Shown: one piece after another, positions 1 through 9,638 of the stretch | Numbering within the stretch: position 1 is the first letter of the stretch | Layout of the letters: every line of letters starts with the position of its first letter | DNA from: a virus | Lineage: Duplodnaviria; Heunggongvirae; Uroviricota; Caudoviricetes | Virus record (IMG/VR): IMGVR_UViG_2537561977_000015 | Location: 1 to 9,638 of that record | Direction: 5' to 3' (one strand) | Length of the DNA stretch: 9,638 nucleotides | Notes under the pieces: model-generated | The model's input: only the letters and a program-made list of their open reading frames with translations | Told to the model about the DNA's origin: nothing | The model's database searches: none | Made by a program: the position numbers and the translations under genes

Positions 1-993
1 CTAATCGATGGACAGTTTATGGACACTTTCAGCCAGCGGATTAAAGTTGATCGCGTCCTGTAAGAAGTCCGGCGAAAAATGAGCGTACGTCATTGTCTGT
101 TGAATCGTGGCATGCCCAAGAATTCGTTGTAACGTAACAATATTTCCGCCATTCATCATAAAGTGTGTGGCAAATGTATGACGCATGACATGTGTAGCCT
201 GCCCCTTCGGCAAATCCGGTTTAACCTCCTGAAGAATCTCCCGGAACTCCAGATAATCAACCTGATACAACAACCCCGTCCGACGGGTTTTAATCAGCGG
301 CACGACCGAATCAGCCACAGGAACTGAGCGAGACTTCCCATTCTTGGTGTTAAAGAACGTCACCCGGTTGCCAACGATATGCTCTCCACGTAGTTCTGAT
401 GCTTCACGCCATCGGGCACCAGTAGAAAGACACAGAATGGCAACACGACGCGCATCACCCTCCAGTCGCTCAAGAAGCTGCTCAATCTCATCATCAGAAA
501 GAAAGGCCATTTCTGTGTTCTGAACTTTCAGTTTGCGTATACCGCGTACAGGGTTCGCGTTGTGAAAGACCTCAGCTTCAATCAGCACCGTGAACATGGT
601 AGACAAAACACATAAATCACGATTAATACTGGACGGCATTAATCCGGCCTGTAATTTCTCTGACCTATACTCGAGCATAAATTTTCGCGTCATATGACTG
701 GCACGAGGATCTCCCATTTCACGAATAACCTTCCCTAGCCTGACTCTGTAGCTATCCCCGTAAGCCTGATTACGCCCGTCAAGCATCCACCACGCATCAA
801 GCAGCTCTGATAATCGCCGCTGATCAGCTGGCTTAGCCTGCCATGGCTTGTCATGGAAGTTCTGTAACACATATTTCTCAAACTCCTGAGCCTTTGATTT
901 CAGGGTAAAGATTTTTCGAATCCGCTTTCCTTCTGCCCCCTGCGGCCTTACATCAACCTGATAACGTCCGTCTTTGAGTTGCTTAATCGACAT
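1..993 (-). CDS. int: Tyrosine site-specific recombinase (integrase), P2-phage integrase family; complete, 330 aa
   Basis: Minus-strand ORF whose stop (TAG, + strand cta) is bases 1-3 of the window. The translation carries the conserved C-terminal catalytic region of phage tyrosine integrases (...LCLSTGARWREA..., ...HVMRHTFATHFMMNGGNIVTLQRILGHATIQQTMTYAHFSPDFL...). The N-terminus MSIKQLKDGRYQVDVRP resembles P2-type integrases as I recall them. I place the start at the ATG at 991-993 (SD-like GGAGGGG upstream) rather than the TTG at 1006-1008 used in the ORF track. Confidence 0.9.
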   Translation of the reverse strand: MSIKQLKDGRYQVDVRPQGAEGKRIRKIFTLKSKAQEFEKYVLQNFHDKPWQAKPADQRRLSELLDAWWMLDGRNQAYGDSYRVRLGKVIREMGDPRASHMTRKFMLEYRSEKLQAGLMPSSINRDLCVLSTMFTVLIEAEVFHNANPVRGIRKLKVQNTEMAFLSDDEIEQLLERLEGDARRVAILCLSTGARWREASELRGEHIVGNRVTFFNTKNGKSRSVPVADSVVPLIKTRRTGLLYQVDYLEFREILQEVKPDLPKGQATHVMRHTFATHFMMNGGNIVTLQRILGHATIQQTMTYAHFSPDFLQDAINFNPLAESVHKLSID

Positions 994-1062
994 GATTAGC
1001 CCCTCCAACGGATAAATTAACTAAACACTCCTTGCGAGATGTAATTCGCTCAATGTGTATCG

Positions 1063-1410
1063 TCAGCCAACATTGCGGCCTGATCGGGGTGATTTTTGGG
1101 TAATGCCGATTGAAGGCTGATCGTCCTCCAACTGAATAGAGCCATCAAGAGAGAGAGCCGGGGCTATCTGCCCTCCGGCTTCAAATGTTTCATCTGTCGT
1201 TAACCAAAGCGCATACTTTTTGAGTCGTGAATTCTTTGTAATCTTGAACAAAATTTCACTCCCTATCCCTTCTTGTCTTCCCGTTTCGTAATATCTTTGG
1301 GTATTAACCGGAATCCCTGTAAGTTCAAAGAATTGCTTTCTTGTCAGCCCTTCACTCTTCCGGATCAATAAAATTTTCTCGCCAATACATGTTGACAGTG
1401 TCGAATTCAT
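1063..1410 (-). CDS. Immunity repressor, P2 C-repressor-like / short XRE-type HTH protein (115 aa)
   Basis: Small minus-strand ORF directly upstream of and co-oriented with int, the position of the immunity repressor in P2-like phages. The N-terminal region has an HTH-like segment (KILLIRKSEGLTRKQFFELTGIPVNTQRYYETGR) and a GQIAPAL segment that I recall from P2 C-family repressors. Family assignment is from memory, not a search. Confidence 0.7.
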   Translation of the reverse strand: MNSTLSTCIGEKILLIRKSEGLTRKQFFELTGIPVNTQRYYETGRQEGIGSEILFKITKNSRLKKYALWLTTDETFEAGGQIAPALSLDGSIQLEDDQPSIGITQKSPRSGRNVG

Positions 1411-1511
1411 ACTACTAAAATCCTCTCAAAGTGTCGTAATCTCGACATTGAAACAAACCAAAACAAACCATCACAAGGCGCGACAAGCGTACCAATGCAA
1501 GAGGATAACAA
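1411..1511. promoter_or_regulatory. Divergent switch region between repressor and early operon; contains a perfect tandem direct repeat AAACAAACCA x2 (1451..1470) and a short palindrome TGTCG-N6-CGACA (1433..1449)
   Basis: A 101-bp non-coding gap between two divergently transcribed genes. The tandem 10-mer is read directly from the sequence. P2-type C repressors are known to bind direct repeats overlapping the early promoter, so this is a candidate operator. Exact -35/-10 elements could not be assigned confidently. Confidence 0.5.
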
Positions 1512-2033
1512 ATGCGGGACATCATTGCCGATAAAGAGTTATCTGACACCAAACAACCTCACGCAAGTAGCGGCATTAGCGAATCCGTTGATGCCGCCAA
1601 CGACAACGAACACGAAGAAAACAAGAAAAAGCGTTCCTACAAAAAAGGAGCGACTTTACGGCTGGATGGTCCGATCGCCGGGCTTTGCTCTCTGGAAAAA
1701 GGCGCGGCATATATTGGGCTAACAAAATCTGCACTGCGCGTAGCCATTCATCGCGGTCAAATGCCGGGACATAAAACGCGCACTAACCCGGAAGATGAAA
1801 ACTCAGACGGCGTATGGTGGTTTAACGCCAAAGAGTGGGACAAGTTGGCTGATGAGCTACCAGAGTGCGAACCACCAGAATGGCACAACTGGAAAAGTTA
1901 CTGGACGTATGACCGCCAGAAAAGAAAGTTCTCTCCAGCCAACAAAGAAGACTGCCAGACCGTTAACGGAAAACGGGTTTATACAGGCAGAAGCTCAAAG
2001 CTGGAGCGACTCAAAAGTAACCAGGTCAACTAA
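1512..2033 (+). CDS. Early-operon DNA-binding protein, Cox/Apl-like (excisionase/regulator-like) with N- and C-terminal extensions, 173 aa
   Basis: First gene of the rightward operon, divergent from the repressor. SD GAGGA lies 7 nt upstream of the ATG. The internal segment GAAYIGLTKSALRVAIHRGQMP followed by a W-rich segment (GVWWFNAKEW) resembles the HTH-plus-wing layout of Cox/excisionase-type proteins. The protein is about twice the length of P2 Cox, so this assignment is tentative. Confidence 0.55.
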   Translation: MRDIIADKELSDTKQPHASSGISESVDAANDNEHEENKKKRSYKKGATLRLDGPIAGLCSLEKGAAYIGLTKSALRVAIHRGQMPGHKTRTNPEDENSDGVWWFNAKEWDKLADELPECEPPEWHNWKSYWTYDRQKRKFSPANKEDCQTVNGKRVYTGRSSKLERLKSNQVN

Positions 2034-2260
2034 ACACATAAAAATGACCAGCCATATCATCAGCGCCATTCTAACCCTTGTGTTTATTGAGATAGGCGTA
2101 ATAGCGATTTATTTTTTCGCAAGTTAACGAGACATGAAGAACGCTTTATTGATCTCAATATTGAGTACGTCGCCGCTTATGCCAAAGGGCTTTTTCCGAC
2201 TGCCATTGGTGCGGTTCTCATAGCGTTTGTTATTTGGCTCATTGAGTAGAGGCACGAAAA

Positions 2261-2671
2261 ATGAATAAGCAGCAAAAAAGCAACACCAATAACGCCCAGC
2301 TCCTAGTGCAACCGGAGGATAAAAGCCTACAGGAACAGCTTAAGTACCTAGATGAGCTGAAACACGACATTATCATCTTTCCGGACAATATTTGCGCTAT
2401 TGGACTGCAAGTATCCCCATTGCAACTTGCCAATACATATCGCCACCTGATCTCTGGGCAAATGCAAAACACGACAGATAACGAAGTGCCAGAAGAGGCG
2501 CGAAAGCACTTTCGTGATTCACTTGGCACAGAAGGGATCGCCATAAAGATACACCCTATTGCAGTTCACATTTCTTTTTATGGCACTCAATCCCCCGAAG
2601 AGGCAATCAAAAACATAATCAAAAGCCAAAACAAGATGACTGAGATAAAACGGGGCGTAGCAGCCCCGTAG
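2261..2671 (+). CDS. Hypothetical protein (136 aa), AT-rich accessory block
   Basis: ORF with a GAGG SD 8-9 nt upstream of the ATG. No recognisable motif. Its 3' end overlaps a hairpin that is shared with the convergent minus-strand gene. Confidence 0.55.
   Translation: MNKQQKSNTNNAQLLVQPEDKSLQEQLKYLDELKHDIIIFPDNICAIGLQVSPLQLANTYRHLISGQMQNTTDNEVPEEARKHFRDSLGTEGIAIKIHPIAVHISFYGTQSPEEAIKNIIKSQNKMTEIKRGVAAP
2650..2669 (-). terminator. Hairpin ACGGGGC-GTAGCA-GCCCCGT; candidate intrinsic terminator for the leftward small gene (U-run on the minus strand only)
   Basis: 7-bp GC-rich stem with a 6-nt loop read from the sequence. On the minus strand it is followed by TTTT. On the plus strand no T-run follows. 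It lies 8 bp past the stop of the minus-strand gene 2678..2857. Confidence 0.4.
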
Positions 2672-2677
2672 AGACTC

Positions 2678-2857
2678 TCAGAAAATAGTGACACTGAACC
2701 CAACAGGATACTTAGTGTTGCTTTCGTTGAGAATTTTGAACGCCAAATCGCGGATTGTTGCAGCAGGATGTTCCTGACTTACCGCCTGAACAGGTGTTTG
2801 CTCAAGGGTATCGAGAAGTTTTTTCATTTGTTCAATGACTTCTTCATGTGAATTCAT
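2678..2857 (-). CDS. Hypothetical small protein (59 aa) encoded opposite to the surrounding early genes
   Basis: Strong SD (AAGGAG) 6 nt upstream of the ATG at 2855-2857 on the minus strand. The ORF track's longer 82-aa version has an N-terminal extension (MVVCCAAFGQ...) that looks non-coding, so I trimmed it to this start. Convergent with 2261..2671 and divergent from 2989..3339. Confidence 0.55.
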   Translation of the reverse strand: MNSHEEVIEQMKKLLDTLEQTPVQAVSQEHPAATIRDLAFKILNESNTKYPVGFSVTIF

Positions 2858-2988
2858 ATGAACTCCTTTTTCAGTGGTGGTTATATCAATAGCTTTCTGG
2901 CCGAAGGCTGCACAACAAACTACCACAAAACCATGCGCCGGGCATGGCTAAAACCCGGCACTAATTCACAACAGCAGTAGGGTCTTGC

Positions 2989-3339
2989 ATGAAACAACAA
3001 AGCAATTCTTCACAACGGCGCTTCCGCAACGGCGCAGAACGCCATGCTAACCGTTTCGCTACCAGTGCATCACGTAGCAGCTCTCGCTACAGCCTGAGCG
3101 AAACACACGCAACACCGGATGGCCACGCTGTAAAACAAATCGGCGAGCACACCTGGCTGATTGAGAAAGCTGGAATCGTGGTTCACAGGTGCCCCCGCAA
3201 CCCATTTACCGGAAACCGCATTTTTGCACTGAGCAGCGGCGACAATCAGTTCGGACAGGATTTCACATTGTACGAAGCGCTACGCACGGTTGACCGCTTA
3301 ATTGCAGGACGTAGTTTTCAGCATCCACGGGGGAATTAA
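2989..3339 (+). CDS. Hypothetical protein (116 aa), Ser/Arg-rich N-terminus
   Basis: ORF at the start of a tightly packed plus-strand gene string. The SD is weak. No recognisable motif. Confidence 0.5.
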   Translation: MKQQSNSSQRRFRNGAERHANRFATSASRSSSRYSLSETHATPDGHAVKQIGEHTWLIEKAGIVVHRCPRNPFTGNRIFALSSGDNQFGQDFTLYEALRTVDRLIAGRSFQHPRGN

Positions 3340-3342
3340 CCA

Positions 3343-3597
3343 ATGGCAACAACGACAAAAAACATGGTAGAGATAGCCTCGGCCTACACTATTATCATGC
3401 ACCGGCTCATAGATAATAATGCCCGTGATGCATTAAATACGATAAAACCTTTGTCGGAAGCAAAAAGCGATATTATCAGCGGATTAAAGTCACTACAGGA
3501 ATGCGCACGCTATGCAGGTGATCACGCCGCATACATGACCATTAACGATACAATTGAGCGCATTGAATCAGGTAAACCATTAAGAGCTTTTGTTTAA
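3343..3597 (+). CDS. Hypothetical protein (84 aa)
   Basis: Begins 4 nt after the previous stop. GGGGGAA SD-like sequence upstream. AT-rich composition matching its neighbours. Confidence 0.55.
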   Translation: MATTTKNMVEIASAYTIIMHRLIDNNARDALNTIKPLSEAKSDIISGLKSLQECARYAGDHAAYMTINDTIERIESGKPLRAFV

Positions 3598-3617
3598 TTG
3601 TTTTCTGGGGAAATGCA

Positions 3618-3860
3618 ATGGGCAAAGAATATAAAACTCTCATTAACAAAGCACTTGAGCGTTTTTATTTTCGCTTAAACACATCAGGGGTCCACGCCGA
3701 ACACGCAGCCCATGATTCATTAGCAAGAGCAATCAGAAGTCTTTATGACGTACCCTTTTATGCTGACGATTTGGATGCAATTAACGAGCTTTCCGAACTC
3801 GTCTGCGCCGCAGAATGCGGAGAGCGCATTGAACCATATAAACTGGGGAATATCGTATGA
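3618..3860 (+). CDS. Hypothetical protein (80 aa)
   Basis: GGGGAAA SD-like sequence upstream of the ATG. Its stop overlaps the start of the next small ORF (ATGA). Confidence 0.55.
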   Translation: MGKEYKTLINKALERFYFRLNTSGVHAEHAAHDSLARAIRSLYDVPFYADDLDAINELSELVCAAECGERIEPYKLGNIV

Positions 3861-3970
3861 GTATATTTATATCATGGATTGTTCTGATTATTTCGGTGGC
3901 CTGCGCAATCGGGATTATGCGAATTATTAATTCAGTAAAAAAGATTGAACGCTTTTTCACTGAAGAATAA
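3857..3970 (+). CDS. Small membrane peptide (37 aa: MSIFISWIVLIISVACAIGIMRIINSVKKIERFFTEE), one predicted transmembrane helix plus a charged tail
   Basis: Not in the ORF track because it is below the size cutoff. Found by reading: ATG at 3857 overlaps the upstream TGA stop (ATGA coupling), GGGGAA SD-like sequence 7-8 nt upstream, hydrophobic N-terminal 20 residues followed by a basic/acidic tail, in-frame stop TAA at 3968-3970. Confidence 0.45.
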   Translation: MSIFISWIVLIISVACAIGIMRIINSVKKIERFFTEE

Positions 3971-4063
3971 TCGCGCAAATAAGATTTCAGGTTAAATAAG
4001 AAAATGTAAAAACAATCCGCATTCGCGGAGGTATTCGCACAAGTAAATAACGGAGATACAAAA

Positions 4064-4474
4064 ATGCTCGAAAAAGAAGAAGGTATTATCAAAGCACTGA
4101 AAGAAATTTCAAAGACAGAAAACGAAGTAGCGAAAAAAGCCGTGGCAAATGCTCATATGAACGTCGCAACCCACACACTGATAGTCGCAAGAGTCACGGC
4201 AGAAGCAGCCGAAATTATCGCAAAACAGAATGCTGAACTGGCAGTTCTCAGAACACAACCAGTCACCGGACTGGATTTGTCTAACACCGGACGCCTTATT
4301 TACACAATTGATTCGGAGCTAAAGCCATACATCATTCTCGCCGGAGTGCAGGATAAATACCTGATTACCCTTTACCCCATAAAAGAATCAGAAATCATGA
4401 AAGACCTCCGCCTGATTGAGCGCACTCACGCTGTATTTACTGATGCCGCACAACGCGCCGTATTAAACGCATAA
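4064..4474 (+). CDS. Hypothetical protein (136 aa)
   Basis: ORF with a GGAG SD about 9 nt upstream. Last gene of the AT-rich block. No recognisable motif. Confidence 0.55.
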   Translation: MLEKEEGIIKALKEISKTENEVAKKAVANAHMNVATHTLIVARVTAEAAEIIAKQNAELAVLRTQPVTGLDLSNTGRLIYTIDSELKPYIILAGVQDKYLITLYPIKESEIMKDLRLIERTHAVFTDAAQRAVLNA

Positions 4475-4481
4475 ACCCGTC

Positions 4482-4820
4482 ATGAAAAAACTGAAATATC
4501 TCGTGGCCCTGTTGGGCCACATCGCCAGGACAGCAACAGGATTTTACTTCCGCCCGTTCAACAAAGTATGGGACGAACACCTACAACAAATCTTGGACGA
4601 AGGTGTTCTTGAGTCAACTAACAAACATGCCGTCTTTTGGCTCTACGGCGACATATACGAAATCTGGATCAGCAACCGCTGGTTTGCGTACGGGTTCCTG
4701 TTCTGCCTGAACGGACAATTTGTAGCCCCGGCAGATGCGTACCGCCCACGTTTCCGCACCATGTACCGCCTGCATCAAATGGTACAGGCCAGCAAGGCAA
4801 AGGAGATGGGGAATGTTTAG
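4482..4820 (+). CDS. Hypothetical protein (112 aa), aromatic-rich
   Basis: ORF beginning 7 nt after the previous stop. Composition shifts to the higher GC of the downstream replication module. Its stop overlaps the next gene's start region. Confidence 0.5.
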   Translation: MKKLKYLVALLGHIARTATGFYFRPFNKVWDEHLQQILDEGVLESTNKHAVFWLYGDIYEIWISNRWFAYGFLFCLNGQFVAPADAYRPRFRTMYRLHQMVQASKAKEMGNV

Positions 4821-5019
4821 AGAATTTACCGTCATTCGTTTTACTGCCAAGGGGCGCGAGTATGAAGTTGATGAACGCCTGGTAGACCTGGACAGAACCG
4901 CGCCGTCACGCACCGAACAAGACACTCATCACATCTATCTCACTGACGGCACTTACTTCTGCGCCACCAACGTGGTGCAGGTGAATCTTATCAGACAGGT
5001 ACAGGAGTCACGCAGATGA
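4813..5019 (+). CDS. Hypothetical protein (68 aa)
   Basis: The ORF track extends this to 4735, but the ATG at 4813 has a canonical AAGGAG SD 8 nt upstream and the upstream extension (MRTAHVSAPCTACIK...) looks non-coding. Its stop overlaps the next start (ATGA). Confidence 0.55.
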   Translation: MFREFTVIRFTAKGREYEVDERLVDLDRTAPSRTEQDTHHIYLTDGTYFCATNVVQVNLIRQVQESRR

Positions 5020-5315
5020 CCATTCTGGACTACATCGCTGCTAATCCGGGTTGTAGCGGTGGAGAAATCGCCGCTGCACTGAATACCCCAACCACAACCA
5101 TTAATGCGGAGTTACGCCGTCTCTGGCGCAGCGGTTCAGTCATAAGAAAAGAGCGCAAAACAGGCGGTCGCTTTTCTTATCAGGTAAACCCGATGCCGTT
5201 CGGGTGTAGCAACCCACTAACCCAGATGTTCAACCAGTTACTGAAGGAAGCCAGAGCATGCACAAAGCCTTTGAACGATGGATGCGCCAGCGCTATGGCA
5301 ACCGCTACGACCTGA
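5016..5315 (+). CDS. Putative winged-helix DNA-binding protein (99 aa)
   Basis: AGGAG SD 8 nt upstream. The N-terminal 60 residues (ILDYIAANPGCSGGEIAAALNTPTTTINAELRRLWRSGSVIRKERKTGGRFSYQV) have the helix-turn-helix plus beta-hairpin wing pattern of MarR/ArsR-type winged helices. The low-complexity C-terminal tail overlaps the next ORF. Confidence 0.5.
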   Translation: MTILDYIAANPGCSGGEIAAALNTPTTTINAELRRLWRSGSVIRKERKTGGRFSYQVNPMPFGCSNPLTQMFNQLLKEARACTKPLNDGCASAMATATT

Positions 5316-5404
5316 CGAAAGATACCGATGGCTACTACTGCCGCGAAGTTGTGAAACGAATGTTTGAAGTGTGGCGCTACTGCCGCAGCTTATACGTTGA
5401 ATAA
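5258..5404 (+). CDS. Hypothetical small protein (48 aa: MHKAFERWMRQRYGNRYDLTKDTDGYYCREVVKRMFEVWRYCRSLYVE)
   Basis: Not in the ORF track. ATG at 5258 with a GGAAG SD-like sequence 9 nt upstream and codon usage typical of the surrounding genes. Overlaps the 3' tail of 5016..5315 in another frame. Stop TAA at 5402-5404. Confidence 0.4.
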   Translation: MHKAFERWMRQRYGNRYDLTKDTDGYYCREVVKRMFEVWRYCRSLYVE

Positions 5405-5476
5405 AACAGGTCATCGCCGATGCGCATACAAAAAAACCGCTTGCCATGCCGCAATCAGCCAGGTTACATTTCCGCT

Positions 5477-5551
5477 GCACCTCATAAAACGGGTGCCGGG
5501 ATTTCCACCCCGCTGACAAACGTAGCGCACAACCGCGCCAGCGGTTTTTTT
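5477..5551 (+). ncRNA. Candidate small RNA (about 75 nt) ending at an intrinsic terminator; speculative
   Basis: Possible sigma70 promoter (-35 TTGCCA at 5441..5446, 18-nt spacer, -10 TACATT at 5465..5470) followed by a segment with internal pairing (GGGTG/CACCC) and the terminator at 5531..5551. No protein-like ORF in this stretch. The 5' end is a guess. Confidence 0.2.
5531..5551 (+). terminator. Rho-independent terminator: AACCGC-GCCA-GCGGTT followed by a T-run
   Basis: 6-bp stem with a GCCA loop, followed by 7 consecutive T on the plus strand (5545..5551). It lies about 130 nt downstream of the last gene of the preceding operon. Confidence 0.6.
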
Positions 5552-5730
5552 GTGCGTACTGTATCGCCACGTCTTTTTCGCACACGAATTATGGTGGGGC
5601 GTACGGGGCCGACTTCGGTCGGGCCGGGTTCTGCGTTTGCCGGTTGTGGAAACCCTGTACGTCTCACCACCCCGAGTTTTCCACCTCTGGATGGTGAGTT
5701 TTCAAAACTTACACACGTAGAGGCCACATC

Positions 5731-5961
5731 ATGGCAAACCGCAAACAACAGCGCGCATACGCTGCGCGTCGTCACATCCAGACTGAAATCAACCGCAGAC
5801 TTTTCCGCGCATCACGCGTCGCGCAAATCATGCACATCAATATGCTGCATGAGCGCAGCCACGCACTATCGAACACCTATTGCGCCTCTGTTTTCAGCTA
5901 TCTGGCGGATGATCTGCACGAGCTTCAGCAGCTCATTCAGCAGCAAAACAAACTCCATTAA
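5731..5961 (+). CDS. Hypothetical small basic protein (76 aa), first gene after the structured intergenic region
   Basis: AGAGG SD 8 nt upstream of the ATG. Arg/Gln-rich helical-looking protein. Position and size resemble the small accessory proteins that precede the replication gene in P2-like phages, but I cannot assign a family from sequence. Confidence 0.55.
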   Translation: MANRKQQRAYAARRHIQTEINRRLFRASRVAQIMHINMLHERSHALSNTYCASVFSYLADDLHELQQLIQQQNKLH

Positions 5962-6033
5962 TTCCTGTTCCGGGCCTTTCCTGCACCTTGCGGCGGGAGG
6001 CCTTCGCACATCTGTAACAAGAGGATTGCCGCA

Positions 6034-6399
6034 ATGATTCTCGCCAACGACTTTCTTGAATACCTGCTCAACACAGAACGTGATCTTGCCGCTCGCGTGC
6101 GTGATCGTTATGACATGTACCTGAAATCCCTGCCTGTACCGCAGCTCGCTGACGGAAAAATTGTTATTGATGGCCGCTACATGATTGACAGCCATGAGGG
6201 AAATTACAGGCTTTACCGCATTGAAGGCGGCACCCCGTCCGTTATTGGCATTTACCAGCGCCCATCCTCTGCAATCGTCGATGTGATTGCCGACAGCATC
6301 CGCATCACACATCGCCATGCCGACACAGAAGACACCGTGCTGGAAATTCAGCGGCTGGCTACCGTCTGCCGCGACACCCTGAATGGCATGACGAAGTAA
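6034..6399 (+). CDS. Hypothetical protein (121 aa) immediately upstream of the replication initiator
   Basis: AAGAGGA SD 9 nt upstream. Compact ORF whose stop lies 6 nt before the next ATG. No recognisable motif. Confidence 0.55.
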   Translation: MILANDFLEYLLNTERDLAARVRDRYDMYLKSLPVPQLADGKIVIDGRYMIDSHEGNYRLYRIEGGTPSVIGIYQRPSSAIVDVIADSIRITHRHADTEDTVLEIQRLATVCRDTLNGMTK

Positions 6400-6405
6400 A
6401 TCACT

Positions 6406-6852
6406 ATGGCGGCAGAGTACATCAGGGACTGGCAACAACCGCGCCACGCAGTGGGGCGTGAAGGAACGGGGATCCCCGCTCCTGAATCCGCGCTTTCCTC
6501 CTGGCTGGATGCCTACCGGGCAGAGAACGAGCGCCGCCAGGAAATGGCTGATGCGGCGTTCTCCGCCACGACGCTGGGCAACCTGATTAATAAAAGCCTG
6601 GATGCACAGGAAAAACAGGACAAAACCATCACACTGGCAGGAGACGCCAGAAAACAGGCACGCGGCGCGGTGGATGAAGCCATGGCCTCGCTGCGCCTGC
6701 TGCCGTCCTATCTGCGCGATCCGCTTATTCGCCGCCTCTCTTTCCTGCGCAAAAACAGGAAGCCGATCGTCAGAAAGGCAAAAAGAGCCGACAGCAGAAC
6801 GCTATGCACGCGGAACCCTGCGCAAAATATTCGAACGTCTGGACCGCACTGA
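6406..6852 (+). CDS. Probable N-terminal part of the gene-A-like replication initiator, in a different frame from the main ORF (frame disruption near 6780)
   Basis: Protein-like translation from 6406 to about 6790, with a degenerate tail after that. The overlapping frame of 6602..9226 becomes protein-like only from about 6790. An A5 run sits at the junction (6780..6784). Confidence 0.45.
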   Translation: MAAEYIRDWQQPRHAVGREGTGIPAPESALSSWLDAYRAENERRQEMADAAFSATTLGNLINKSLDAQEKQDKTITLAGDARKQARGAVDEAMASLRLLPSYLRDPLIRRLSFLRKNRKPIVRKAKRADSRTLCTRNPAQNIRTSGPH

Positions 6853-9226
6853 CAGACACTGGCTGACACCGGGTTATCGCTCCCTTGCCGGACGTGAACG
6901 CCTGGATGATTTGCTTTACCTGCCACAGCTCAACAAGCACCAGATACAGACGCTGGCCACCATGACAGCGGCGATGTTCAGCAGCACCTTCGAAACACTC
7001 TGTGATGGCTTTGGTGCCAGAGATGGCGAGCTGACCATGGAGGTGGCGCTGAAGGCATATCAGATGCTGGCACGCATGGCGTTACATCTGCACACCATGC
7101 CGCCGCATTATGACGCACTGACAACAGACAAGGACCGGAGGAACGCACCGGATACGGAACTGCTGCCGGGCGCAATTCTTCGCCTGACCTGTGCGGAATG
7201 GTGGAAACGCAAACTGTGGCTGTTACGTTGCGAGTGGAGAGAAGAACAACTCCGCGCCGCCTGTCTGGTTTCCAGAAAAACATCACCCTATCTGAGCCAG
7301 GACGCGTTAAGCGCGTTTCGCGCACAGCGCGAGAAAACACGCGATTTCCTGAAAAGTTTCATGCTGGAAAATGAAGACGGGTTCACGATTGATCTCGAGA
7401 CGGTGTATTACGCGGGAGTAAGTAACCCGGTTCACCGTAAGGCAGAAATGATGGCCACCATGAAGGGACTGGAACTTCTGGCCGAAGCCCGTGGCGACAG
7501 AGCGGTGTTTCTGACTGTCACCTGCCCGTCAAAATACCACGCAACAACGGAGAACGGTCATCCGAACCCCAAATGGAACGGGGCCACCATGCGCGACTCC
7601 AGCGATTACCTGGTTAACACGTTTTTTGCGGCGGTCCGCAAAAAACTGAACCGCGACGGTCTGCGCTGGTATGGCATCCGCACGGTGGAGCCTCACCATG
7701 ACGGCACTGTGCACTGGCATATGATGGTCTTTGCACATCCGGACGAGATTGAAACCATCGTGTCCCACGTCTGCGATATTGCCATTCAGGAAGACCGCCA
7801 CGAGCTGGGCGATGACATAACTCCGCGTTTTAAGGCGGAGTACGTAGACGGCTCAAAAGGCACACCAACCAGCTACATCGCCACCTACATCGGAAAGAAC
7901 CTGGACAGCCGCGCCGTGGATGGCATCGACCCGAAAACGGGCAAGCCACGCGTTGACCACGAAACCGGAAAATCAATGGCCGAGAGCGTGGAACGCGCCA
8001 TCGGCTGGGCGCGCCTTCACCGGGTCCGCCAGTTCCAGTTCTTTGGTATCCCCTCCCGTCAGGTGTGGCGTGAACTGCGCCGCCTTGCCAGCCAGATGGC
8101 ACGCAACCCGGAAGGCCCGCAACGGCTGAAGGATGACGCAATGGACGCGGTACTCGCTGCCGCTGATGCCGGATGTTTTGCCACCTACATTGAGAAACAG
8201 GGTGGCGTACTTGTTCCACGCAAAGACTACCTGATTCGCACCGCCTACGACCTCGCAGATGAGCTGAACGATTACGGTGAACAGAGCGTACAGATTTACG
8301 GGATCTGGTCGCCGCTCATTGGGGAGTCTTCCCGCGTATGCACGCATCCGGATAACTGGAAGCTGGTAAGACGCAAACCGGAAGCGGAAGACAGCGCCCG
8401 CGAAAATGGTTTTGACCTTCAGGGCGGCCCTGCCGCCCCTTGGACTCGTGGCAATAACTGTCCCCGTGTACAGGAAACGAACAACAACGGGACAGAACAG
8501 CCGGAAGAACGGCCAGCACCGTGGCCGCAGCTCCCTGACGGCGTTGAAGTGAACGAATGGATGCGCTCACTGAAACGGCACGAACGCCGGGCGCTGATGC
8601 GTTCGCTTCGTGACAAACAGGCAAAAAACAGCAGTGATGAAATGCAGAACTGGACGCAGAGCCGCAAACAGCCGCGACCTTTGCCTGATAACCACGAATT
8701 ACTCGCTAAAGAATGGCGGGAGTCTGCTGAATCTCTCGGCATGCATATCGGTGAACAACAGATGCAGCACTTGTTACGGGGCGGCAGTCTGTACGTTGAC
8801 GGCAGCATCATTGCACCGCAGGGATTTAAAATTGTACGCAAACCGGATACCCGCCCGGACAGCCGAATCACGCAACTCTGGCAACGCCTGAGCCGTAATC
8901 ACGGCGTAAGCAGCACGGAGATCCGTCATAACCCTGTCGCCAGCTATCTGGAACAGCTGGGGACATCAGACCCCGAAGCAGCCGCACGCCTGGCATCCAT
9001 ACTTCAGCAGGACCAGAACACCATGAAAACACCCGTTACCGTGCTTTCTGACATGCTGCGCGCCATCCGCGACGCAGAGCACGCACAGAGAATCAGTGAA
9101 ACCACTGAACGCGCCCGCCGCAAAGCAGACCTGCTGCGGGGTGGCCTGACCAGTGGAAACAAAAAACAGACAGAAACGGGACTCACGAATCCCGTAAATG
9201 AGCAAAAAACGCGCAGCGATATATGA
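6602..9226 (+). CDS. Rolling-circle replication initiator, P2 gene A-like HUH replication endonuclease (coordinates are those of the longest ORF; true 5' end uncertain)
   Basis: HUH metal-binding motif (TVHWHMMVF, nt 7712..7720 encode H-W-H) followed about 50 residues later by the paired catalytic tyrosines (TSYIATYIGKN, Tyr codons at 7874 and 7886). This is the signature arrangement of phiX174/P2 gpA-type Rep proteins. Other segments (LTVTCPSKYH, GIRTVEPHHDGT) resemble P2 gpA as I recall it. The first 180 nt of this frame look non-coding. Confidence 0.85.
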   Translation: MHRKNRTKPSHWQETPENRHAARWMKPWPRCACCRPICAIRLFAASLSCAKTGSRSSERQKEPTAERYARGTLRKIFERLDRTDRHWLTPGYRSLAGRERLDDLLYLPQLNKHQIQTLATMTAAMFSSTFETLCDGFGARDGELTMEVALKAYQMLARMALHLHTMPPHYDALTTDKDRRNAPDTELLPGAILRLTCAEWWKRKLWLLRCEWREEQLRAACLVSRKTSPYLSQDALSAFRAQREKTRDFLKSFMLENEDGFTIDLETVYYAGVSNPVHRKAEMMATMKGLELLAEARGDRAVFLTVTCPSKYHATTENGHPNPKWNGATMRDSSDYLVNTFFAAVRKKLNRDGLRWYGIRTVEPHHDGTVHWHMMVFAHPDEIETIVSHVCDIAIQEDRHELGDDITPRFKAEYVDGSKGTPTSYIATYIGKNLDSRAVDGIDPKTGKPRVDHETGKSMAESVERAIGWARLHRVRQFQFFGIPSRQVWRELRRLASQMARNPEGPQRLKDDAMDAVLAAADAGCFATYIEKQGGVLVPRKDYLIRTAYDLADELNDYGEQSVQIYGIWSPLIGESSRVCTHPDNWKLVRRKPEAEDSARENGFDLQGGPAAPWTRGNNCPRVQETNNNGTEQPEERPAPWPQLPDGVEVNEWMRSLKRHERRALMRSLRDKQAKNSSDEMQNWTQSRKQPRPLPDNHELLAKEWRESAESLGMHIGEQQMQHLLRGGSLYVDGSIIAPQGFKIVRKPDTRPDSRITQLWQRLSRNHGVSSTEIRHNPVASYLEQLGTSDPEAAARLASILQQDQNTMKTPVTVLSDMLRAIRDAEHAQRISETTERARRKADLLRGGLTSGNKKQTETGLTNPVNEQKTRSDI

Positions 9227-9270
9227 AGCGCGCACAAAACAGGCAAAAACGGGATTTCAGAATCCCGTAA
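9163..9270. repeat. Two copies of a 35-bp direct repeat (9163..9197 and 9236..9270, 29/35 identical), each containing the inverted repeat ACGGGA...TCCCGT
   Basis: Read directly from the sequence. Copy 1 lies inside the last 20 codons of the replication gene, copy 2 in the gap before the ParM-like gene. The stems are conserved while the loops differ at 4 positions. Confidence 0.6.
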
Positions 9271-9302
9271 TCGATTAATTAATCAACATAAGGAAAAGCG
9301 AC

Positions 9303-9638
9303 ATGAAAATTTGTATCGACGACGGCTCCACCAACATCAAGCTGGCATGGACTGAGAACGGCGAACGCCGCAACGCCATCAGCCCGAACAGCTTCAAGTC
9401 GGAATGGTCTGCGCCGTTCGGTGGCATGCAGCCCGCGAACTACATGCTTGATGGCGTGCGCTATGGTTTTGATCCGGTCAGCGATCGCTTTGTCCAGACA
9501 ACCGACACGCAATACCAATACAGCGATGTAAATGTCATTGCCATTCATCACGCGCTGGTCAAATCAGGCATCACGCCACAGGAGGTGGATGTGGTTGTCA
9601 CCCTGCCACTGAGCGAGTATTTCGACACAAACGCACAG
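9303..9638 (+). CDS. parM: ParM/StbA-family actin-like segregation ATPase, N-terminal 112 codons (truncated by window end)
   Basis: AAGGA SD 9 nt upstream of the ATG. The N-terminus MKICIDDGSTNIKLAW...ISPNSFK...YSDVNVIAIHHAL...VDVVVTLPLSEY closely matches the phosphate-1 motif and N-terminal region of plasmid R1 ParM (MLVFIDDGSTNIKLQW...ISPNSFK...YSDVNVVAVHHAL...) as I recall it. Confidence 0.75.
   Translation, partial: MKICIDDGSTNIKLAWTENGERRNAISPNSFKSEWSAPFGGMQPANYMLDGVRYGFDPVSDRFVQTTDTQYQYSDVNVIAIHHALVKSGITPQEVDVVVTLPLSEYFDTNAQ

Follow-up and report, generated by a model that had tools for sequence, protein, structure and literature searches.

The early operon of a P88-like prophage probably carries an IsrK-C4 RNA immunity (anti-immunity control) module of the type known from P4, P1 and N15. 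The module lies in the IMG/VR virus record IMGVR_UViG_2537561977_000015, of which positions 1 to 9,638 were analysed (the window; coordinates are window positions unless another locus is named). It occupies a gap whose limits are the end of the upstream open reading frame (ORF) at 5404 and the next ATG at 5731. An initial annotation, made from the letters alone, had described 5405-5730 as a structured non-coding island, and this description holds; no coding signature is found there. The initial annotation had also drawn an analogy with P1 C4 and P4 CI and had proposed a covariance-model search. That search returned isrK and C4, and the C4 family also matches the P4 CI RNA.

Two RNA families in the gap

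An Rfam scan of the whole window matched isrK (RF01394) with 65.5 bits against a gathering score of 50, and C4 (RF01695) with 79.2 bits against a gathering score of 45. Both matches are full length (model positions 1-77 of 77 and 1-87 of 87, respectively) and exceed chance, with E-values of 1e-12 for isrK and 1e-14 for C4. The identity of both RNAs is near certain. The whole-window scan had no match beyond these two, and a permissive scan (E<=1) of 5300-5850 found no further family. The elements of the module, all on the + strand, are as follows (nt, nucleotides).

5441-5470, +, sigma-70-type promoter-like site TTGCCA-18-TACATT, with a predicted start at about 5477; it ends seven bases before the RNA
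5477-5551, +, IsrK-like small RNA of 75 nt (RF01394)
5477-5482/5491-5496, +, IsrK hairpin 1
5497-5500/5509-5512, +, IsrK hairpin 2, with loop 5501-5508 and a single-stranded linker 3' of the hairpin
5531-5551, +, IsrK intrinsic terminator, with stem 5531-5546 and a T7 run (U-run in the RNA) to 5551
5587-5674, +, C4/CI-type antisense RNA of 88 nt, a three-way junction (RF01695)
5592-5608/5653-5669, +, C4 outer stem
5609-5613/5618-5622, +, C4 hairpin 1 with UUCG loop, which is the cUUCGg hairpin
5623-5627/5640-5644, +, C4 hairpin 2 with a 12-nt loop (5628-5639)
5645-5652, +, single-stranded 3' junction of C4, 8 nt
5669-5671, +, A-C-C of the C4 3' tail (ACC-CCG), after the acceptor-like stem
5663-5702, +, alternative 3' hairpin, in which CTCACCA (5663-5669) pairs with TGGTGAG (5692-5698), followed by TTTT (5699-5702)

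The RNA of about 75 nt is IsrK, the counterpart of the P4 seqA region and of the 'c4-a1b1' motif. The initial annotation had postulated a small RNA of this size between a promoter and a terminator at 5531-5551; the promoter-like site is present, the terminator consists of the stem and T7 listed above, and the isrK match ends exactly at it. The promoter-like site is identical in all P88-like relatives, and boxes of the form TTGNNN / TAnAnT stand at the matching position 5' of isrK in N15, F004, WGPS2 and P4. Judged by position, the candidate promoter is the counterpart of the P4 leader promoter (P_LE), here placed inside a P2-type early operon.

The minimum-free-energy fold of C4 (-45.3 kcal/mol, z-score -3.9) is identical to the family consensus. 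The initial annotation had treated the UUCG hairpin and the CTCACC...GGTGAG hairpin as separate elements. Both are present, the first at 5609-5622 and the second at 5663-5669/5692-5698 with its T-run. The separation does not survive, since one strand, the 3' strand of the outer stem of C4, also serves as the 5' arm of the second hairpin; the UUCG hairpin and that arm therefore belong to one 88-nt RNA. The alternative 3' hairpin (-16.5 kcal/mol, z-score -3.5) presents one of the pairing sites described below, C1, in its loop. Its stem co-varies in P4, N15, F004 and others.

Structural conservation was assessed in 120 IMG/VR loci fetched with a C4 core pattern taken from the family itself. Our own covariance models found 85 further C4 copies in these loci. 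Across 69 C4 homologues 99.5% of cells are paired and 18 of the 27 pairs show a compensatory change, figures that are uninformative at the positions of hairpin 2 and the UUCG loop, which the fetch pattern had fixed, and that are favoured by models built from related sequences. The covariation score is 0.61, against 0.19 for shuffled and at most 0.09 for slid-partner controls. IsrK homologues number 76 (61 among the first 100 sources and 15 in a second batch). For the IsrK structure, the share of paired cells is 98.4%, with a compensatory change in 13 of 16 pairs. Those IsrK copies in the IMG/VR loci that were checked adjoin C4 on its 5' side and on the same strand. The same tandem arrangement, on one strand and with a short spacer (35 nt in the window), is seen with Rfam models in all 11 reference loci that were fetched: five P88-like phages or prophages, N15, the Stx phages F004, P13803 and WGPS2, the Salmonella phage ST64B, and P4. 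In P4 the C4 match is the CI RNA gene and the isrK match is the seqA region.

A further helix is formed by GCGCAC (5525-5530), just 5' of the terminator stem, and GTGCGT (5552-5557), just 3' of the U-run. Its arms flank the terminator, and the helix is restricted to read-through RNA. It co-varies (CGATAC/GTATCG in F004, CGACAT/GTGTCG in P4 and GAGCTGAC/GTCAGC in locus L085), and at least 5 pairs can form in 25 of 39 distinct loci, compared with 26% of non-cognate combinations. The terminator-flanking helix and the 3' hairpin at 5663-5698 probably shape the read-through RNA.

Two side observations concern other copies of the module. In four IMG/VR loci (L025, L026, L067 and L108) the IsrK-C4 module occurs twice on one strand, at a distance of 0.6-2.6 kb and with different pairing blocks. 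The Stx phage P13803 locus (L127) carries a full-length sRNA-Xcc1 (RF02221, 79.6 bits) at 3523-3606, about 0.8 kb 3' of C4 and overlapping an 'antB2' ORF.

Pairing blocks change together between phages

Two stretches of C4 are unpaired in the consensus structure, the loop of hairpin 2 and the 3' junction, and each is complementary to one site in IsrK and one site downstream of C4. The resulting six elements, again on the + strand, are listed below.

5502-5508, +, site A1, TTTCCAC, in the loop of IsrK hairpin 2; complement of 5646-5652
5517-5525, +, site A2, CAAACGTAG, in the IsrK linker; nine pairs with 5631-5639, including one G-U
5631-5639, +, element B2, CTGCGTTTG, in the loop of C4 hairpin 2
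5646-5652, +, element B1, GTGGAAA, in the C4 3' junction
5678-5684, +, site C1, TTTCCAC, three bases 3' of C4; complement of the junction
5712-5723, +, site C2, CACACGTAG, complement of the C4 loop, running into the Shine-Dalgarno (SD) sequence AGAGG at 5719-5723

Site C2, also written CACACGTAGAGG, pairs with the C4 loop through ACGUAGA (seven pairs, one of them G-U), after which CA pairs past one mismatch. P88, Shae_phiSM and others have 9-10 perfectly matched bases here, likewise at offset +37 and adjoining the SD.

The three copies of each element change together between phages. P88, which is otherwise almost identical to the window here, has a matched triple change, with CAACTACAG in IsrK, CTGTAGTTG in the C4 loop and CAACTACAGAGG at the SD in place of CAAACGTAG, CTGCGTTTG and CACACGTAGAGG, respectively. 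Matched triplets of their own for both blocks are found in 705R2, Shae_phiSM, SWHEFF_58, N15, F004, P13803, WGPS2, ST64B and P4. As P88 and other phages carry these matched replacements, the complementarity between C4 and its targets is not a coincidence of one sequence. Compensatory base changes, which the initial annotation had proposed to look for, are thus abundant within C4, within IsrK and between the pairing sites.

The complementarity was quantified as the longest exact complement in cognate and non-cognate combinations of 48 distinct loop/junction types.

Loop to downstream: median 9 nt cognate and 4 nt non-cognate; at least 7 nt in 40 of 48 cognate and 2.3% of non-cognate combinations
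Junction to downstream: median 7 nt cognate and 3 nt non-cognate; at least 7 nt in 31 of 48 and 0.5%
Loop to upstream (IsrK): median 8 nt cognate and 4 nt non-cognate; at least 7 nt in 31 of 48 and 3.3%
Junction to upstream (IsrK): median 7 nt cognate and 4 nt non-cognate; at least 7 nt in 34 of 48 and 1.1%

The sites have fixed offsets, and in every lineage the downstream target of the loop immediately adjoins the SD that belongs to the first ORF. The P88-like group alone has at least seven loop types and at least five junction types, in mixed combinations, a pattern that would be expected for diversifying immunity specificities.

Two other candidate motifs were ruled out. The initial annotation had pointed to a repeated CCACCCCG. 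The repeat is indeed present, at 5505-5512 and at 5667-5674, one base from the position first given for the second copy (0.22 such repeats are expected per window by chance). It is not conserved in 705R2, SWHEFF_58 and others, and it arises from the overlap of the TTTCCAC site with the hairpin stem in IsrK and from the ACC-CCG tail in C4. The relevant repeat is instead TTTCCAC (sites A1 and C1) with its complement GTGGAAA (B1). GGCAAAC at 5733-5739, in codons 2-3 of the next gene, was considered as a C4 target and rejected, being constant in all P88-like phages whatever their loop.

The gene behind the module

The first gene behind C4 is the following.

5731-5961, +, epsilon-like anti-repressor of 76 amino acids (aa), Pfam PF25738; homologue of the P4 epsilon helper derepression protein

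The protein matches the Derepression protein family PF25738 with 32.1 bits (cutoff 27), and in a tblastn comparison it is 33% identical to P4 epsilon over 51 aa, with the common motif FSYL(A/N)(D/E)D. Among 14 distinct P88-like sequences, 46 variable sites of 5731-5961 fall at third codon positions, compared with 24 and 26 at the other two. As variable sites concentrate at third positions, 5731-5961 is a real gene. In a phage collection, all nine records with the epsilon-like gene are P88-like, and all nine are also among the matches to the RNA module. Neither the epsilon-like gene nor the small ORF behind it (orf121) matched the icd, ant, KilA-N, Bro-N or Rha families. With its SD against site C2, the epsilon-like gene is the one that the RNA module is positioned to control.

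Other first ORFs behind C4 are of several kinds. In P4-like elements and N15 the first ORF encodes a peptide of 54-65 aa that is Kil/Icd-like by sequence inspection; in lambdoid phages it encodes a Rha-family protein (confirmed with Pfam for WGPS2 and ST64B); and in some others the products are Bro-N-like by sequence inspection. Given these types of first ORF, the module generally guards anti-repressor or kil-type functions. A separate case is locus L002 (2073-2159 and downstream), where the first ORF behind C4 is 483 aa long and, instead of resembling an anti-repressor, is helicase-like by a look at its N-terminal sequence; in some elements the IsrK-C4 module may gate replication functions directly.

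The long reading frame and the Ash family

An ORF of 205 codons (5420-6037) runs across both RNA genes and into the epsilon-like gene, and its translation had been named in the initial annotation as the observation that would speak against a non-coding island. It is free of premature stops in 11 of the 14 distinct P88-like sequences, is annotated as a coding sequence (CDS) in 705R2 and PhiR44_2, and appears elsewhere as 'ash family protein' or 'hypothetical protein'. Its translation also resembles the Ash protein family of Pfam (PF10554), with 26.0 bits in 705R2 and 21.3 bits in the window. That the region encodes this protein is nevertheless highly improbable. The window score is below the cutoff of 26, the start codon is replaced by TCG, AGC or CCG in three of the 14 sequences, and RefSeq has an incomplete 'ash family protein' pseudogene, and no RNA, at the locus. 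When examined, 5420-5730 showed no coding signature: variable sites per codon phase are 7/6/7, 8/7/6, 3/2/3, 8/6/8 and 10/8/11, without codon periodicity, and the variation obeys RNA pairing rules. Where the ORF overlaps the epsilon-like gene (5731-5961), the periodicity is that of the epsilon frame and not of the long ORF. Amino-acid differences relative to nucleotide differences have a ratio of 0.63 in the long-ORF frame and of 0.45 in the epsilon frame, which is thus the constrained one.

The Ash family itself follows the RNA genes. In all phages examined for it, PF10554 aligns to translations of isrK-C4: besides 705R2 and the window, these are the P4 'cI ORF' (59.7 bits), WGPS2 (54.8 bits) and ST64B (42.8 bits), and the alignments span 5465-5734 in the window, 8330-8521 in the P4 locus (L130), 2494-2785 in the WGPS2 locus (L128) and 2489-2780 in the ST64B locus (L129). 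P4 genetics identified the immunity factor as an RNA. In the simplest reading, the long ORF and the Ash family are the protein shadow of conserved RNA genes. Two minus-strand ORFs, 5482-5775 and 5238-5585, were ruled out as genes, having no Pfam match above threshold and no periodicity in any phase.

A related annotation was seen in WGPS2 (L128, 2146-3297) and in sb41 of ST64B (L129, 2147-3304), where a CDS of 383-385 aa, labelled 'transcriptional regulator', covers both RNA genes and then, without a change of frame, a Rha-family protein of about 182 aa. The first 200 codons of this CDS are probably non-coding.

The surrounding prophage

The prophage is of the P2 type, and the window covers its left end, with an early operon of the P88-like (Xuanwuvirus) type. 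The nearest sequenced phages are P88 and its relatives (Xuanwuvirus, Peduoviridae), and the gap is 95% identical to that of P88. Besides the elements given above, the window has the following genes.

1-1008, -, integrase, at the left (regulatory and early) end of the P2-type prophage
1063-1410, -, C-type repressor
1512-2033, +, Cox-like protein, followed by a series of small + strand ORFs
5016-5315, MarR-type winged-helix protein, upstream of the gap
5258-5404, 48-aa ORF, whose stop at 5404 is the left edge of the gap
6034-6399, +, orf121 (121 aa), in the same transcription unit as the epsilon-like gene
6406-9226, +, replication gene A (Phage_GPA, E 6e-128), in the same transcription unit as the epsilon-like gene

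In P88-like phages conservation begins abruptly at about 5428, just 5' of the -35 box, whereas 5400-5427 is fully variable and the accessory ORFs are variable too. This abrupt onset indicates that the promoter, the RNA genes, the epsilon-like gene and gene A behave as one conserved block beside variable cargo. Gene A is split here into two overlapping ORFs (6406-6852 and 6602-9226) by two 1-nt deletions relative to P88, 705R2 and Shae_phiSM, A6 to A5 at about 6751 and CAGGC to CAGC at about 6793.

The initial annotation had described P2-type early operons as normally compact and continuous up to gene A. A terminator alone would not be unusual there, as internal terminators are annotated in the early operons of both P2 and 186. 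The early regions of P2 and 186 gave no covariance-model match at E<=1, and the module as a general feature of the P2 family was thus ruled out. No tRNA or tmRNA was found in the gap. LexA/SOS control of the module was also ruled out, as no LexA box was found near it and LexA-like matches elsewhere in the window (at most one mismatch) are at chance level, with five found and 3.2 expected. One of the LexA-box-like sequences, the perfect palindrome CTGTCCCCGTGTACAG at 8458-8473, lies inside gene A and is probably meaningless.

Relation to known systems

This kind of switch is well known from P1, P7, P4, N15 and Gifsy-1, and both RNAs are in Rfam. The equivalence of seqA/CI to isrK/C4 has been stated, and the term 'IsrK-C4 immunity system' is in use (PMC3632133; PMC4825925); 'c4 antisense RNA' and 'c4-a1b1' are among the Proteobacteria/phage motifs listed by Weinberg et al. 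(PMC2864571). The initial annotation had supposed that an immunity or attenuation role would be new in this context. For the IsrK-C4 system as such this has little support, as it is established for P4, P1, P7, N15 and lambdoid prophages (PMC3632133; PMC4825925; PMC2864571); only its occurrence in P88-like P2-type phages, directly in front of an epsilon-like gene, is seemingly undescribed in the literature searched.

P4 is among the closest parallels. Both Rfam families recur there with order and strand unchanged, and so do a promoter at an equal distance 5' of isrK/seqA, two pairing blocks in three copies each, a downstream block that abuts an SD, an epsilon homologue and then a replication gene downstream, and a shadow 'cI/Ash' ORF over the RNA. 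The order in P4 is leader promoter, seqA, CI (seqB), seqC, (kil), epsilon, orf151, cnr and alpha, and that in the window is promoter, IsrK, C4, epsilon-like gene, one small ORF and replication gene. There are also differences. The spacer between IsrK and C4 is 107 nt in P4 and 35 nt in the window. The first gated ORF of P4 encodes 65 aa and is Kil/Icd-like by inspection, with epsilon further down, whereas the window has target and SD joined directly to the epsilon-like gene. The window element belongs to a P2-like phage of the helper type rather than to a satellite, and it encodes a C repressor and Cox of its own. Finally, orf121 is without a P4 counterpart, and orf121, orf148, orf48 and the MarR-type protein showed no homology to P4 when compared.

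In P1 and P7, c4 blocks the ribosome-binding site (RBS) of ant. In the anti-repressor operon, the site bound by the loops of the antisense RNA covers the first gene's RBS, there are upstream and downstream targets, and differences in specificity lead to heteroimmunity (PMC12197685). The window shares with immI of P1/P7 the antisense RNA family and the a1b1 / a'b' / a2b2 logic (P1 is taken here from publications), but the gated genes are icd/ant in P1 and the epsilon-like gene in the window. In Gifsy-1 of Salmonella, IsrK has its own promoter and a leaky terminator, and read-through gives an mRNA that contains the processed STnc1160 RNA and the anti-repressor gene; extra IsrK supplied in trans turns on anti-repressor translation, and the isrK promoter is required for spontaneous induction (PMC4825925). 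Hfq binding by IsrK and its action in trans on the read-through mRNA are known from Gifsy-1 only (PMC4825925). According to the same paper the isrK-orf45(STnc1160)-anrP locus has, like the window, an IsrK family RNA complementary to downstream RNA. Gifsy-1 differs in being a lambdoid prophage with another anti-repressor family, its control being attributed to a 45-codon ORF with translational coupling.

The isrK and C4 pair of the N15 immA region is 70% identical to the window in DNA and has matched pairing blocks. Its junction block, GTTGAGAA, is identical to that of a P88-like contig (L024). The first ORF differs in being Icd-like, with 54 aa. The C4 locus of N15 is that of the CA RNA, which controls icd-antA-antB. 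Termination in N15 reportedly depends on CA RNA (Ravin et al. 1999, cited in PMC3632133), and the termination mechanism of P4 was reportedly described by Forti, Briani, Ghisotti and Deho.

The direct fusion of target and SD to an epsilon-type gene, which is unlike the arrangement in P4, P1, N15 and Gifsy-1, seems to be undescribed. The module goes unmentioned in literature on P88, in a review of P2-like regulatory genes and in a 2026 survey of P2-like virus diversity, a search that lay outside the classical papers on P4 and N15.

Proposed mechanism and alternatives

By analogy with these systems, the internal promoter would be active in the lysogen, and most transcripts would end at the IsrK terminator. 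RNase P would cleave the read-through RNA at the foot of the acceptor-like outer stem, forming the 5' end of C4 and releasing it; release of RNAs of this family also involves trimming at the 3' end. C4 would then pair with sites C1 and C2 and block binding of the 30S subunit to the epsilon-like mRNA, comparable to the action of P1 c4 on the ant operon, and the untranslated RNA would probably be terminated before gene A (polarity), as in P4. Since IsrK holds both target sites, it would compete for C4 as a decoy partner, and the balance of IsrK and C4 would decide whether anti-repressor is made. The hypervariable pairing blocks would give each phage an RNA immunity specificity of its own.

Several points weigh against this reading. 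Pairing of the C4 loop is weaker in the window than in most relatives, with a G-U at the IsrK site and a mismatch plus a G-U at the SD-proximal site. Action of the epsilon-like protein on the phage's own C repressor is putative. An active promoter, an efficient terminator, cleavage by RNase P and repression are all predicted from the analogous systems, and the control of orf121 and gene A by polarity and the role of the alternative 3' hairpin are likewise putative. Sequence alone does not separate a translational block from premature termination or from both together. The frameshifts in gene A reflect either a pseudogene, in a replication-defective prophage, or sequencing errors, and the prophage may thus be defective.

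Termination may be the primary level of control, a reading that we regard as somewhat less likely than not. Pairing of C4 with the IsrK and downstream sites would then mainly end transcription early, in the style of P4 and N15. A constitutive internal promoter would yield only the RNAs in the lysogen and never gene A, and the overlap with the SD would matter only through Rho acting on untranslated RNA. The gene order is that of P4 (promoter, isrK/seqA, C4/CI, target at the SD, epsilon, replication gene), there is an intrinsic terminator within IsrK as well as the hairpin with T-run at 5663-5702, and the co-varying helix around the terminator is specific to read-through RNA. The T-run behind the 3' hairpin is however missing in N15 and P4, Rho-dependent sites are not identifiable from sequence, and termination control is compatible with translational repression and so does not exclude it. 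Somewhat doubtful is positive control as in Gifsy-1, where the short IsrK would be the active regulator, pairing in trans with C4 inside the read-through mRNA and thereby opening the RBS of the epsilon-like gene, so that a rise in IsrK would lead to anti-repressor synthesis and prophage induction. Such control has been demonstrated at the homologous isrK locus of Gifsy-1 (PMC4825925), and both C4-complementary sites are present in IsrK, which has a predicted duplex of -31 kcal/mol with the inner segment of C4. Gifsy-1, however, works through the small upstream orf45 and translational coupling, whereas the C4 target in the window abuts the epsilon-like SD and makes a coupling ORF needless; nor is there a LexA box near the module.

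It is distinctly unlikely that the module is an inert relic, intact in sequence but functionless in a defective prophage. The two deletions in gene A and the slightly weakened loop pairing would fit a relic. Both RNAs nevertheless score as high as in viable phages such as P88, and no pairing site is missing. The G variant of the loop also occurs in another context (locus L050), one of the deletions is in a homopolymer run and could be a sequencing error, and even a resident module of a defective prophage could still give RNA immunity. An IsrK-C4 module of the P4/P1/N15 type, placed to control the epsilon-like gene, is the reading that we regard as probable.

Distribution and significance

DNA at least 80% identical over most of 5405-5745 is present in 1,160 of 5,426 complete Escherichia coli (E. 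coli) genomes, and any match in 1,178 of them; near-identical DNA is thereby found in 22% of these genomes, and the E. coli copies number 1,362. A concrete function is proposed for a non-coding gap that is found in about one in five complete E. coli genomes. Annotations of the locus regularly give an 'ash family' or hypothetical protein, which is a widespread error.

Pairing blocks circulate among P88-like phages, N15 and lambdoid prophages, as with GTTGAGAA, which is shared by N15 and the P88-like contig. Through this circulation, co-resident elements could read or jam each other's switches. In this reading a helper-type P2-like lineage would carry the immunity cassette of satellite P4, fused in such a way that a hypervariable RNA lock acts directly on an anti-repressor located just upstream of gene A. 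The cassette, if functional, would provide P88-like phages with a second layer of immunity, based on RNA, and with derepression triggered by RNA. Helpers, satellites and other prophages would be joined in a network of RNA cross-talk across those E. coli genomes (22%) in which the module is present. We consider this an unlikely extension of the findings.

P88-like P2-type prophages appear to hold an epsilon-type anti-repressor, and probably gene A, under an antisense RNA lock of the P4/P1 style, which links the regulatory hardware of the P2 helper lineage to that of satellite P4. The module is also a candidate explanation for derepression without a Tum-like SOS gene, P88 having been recovered after mitomycin C treatment.

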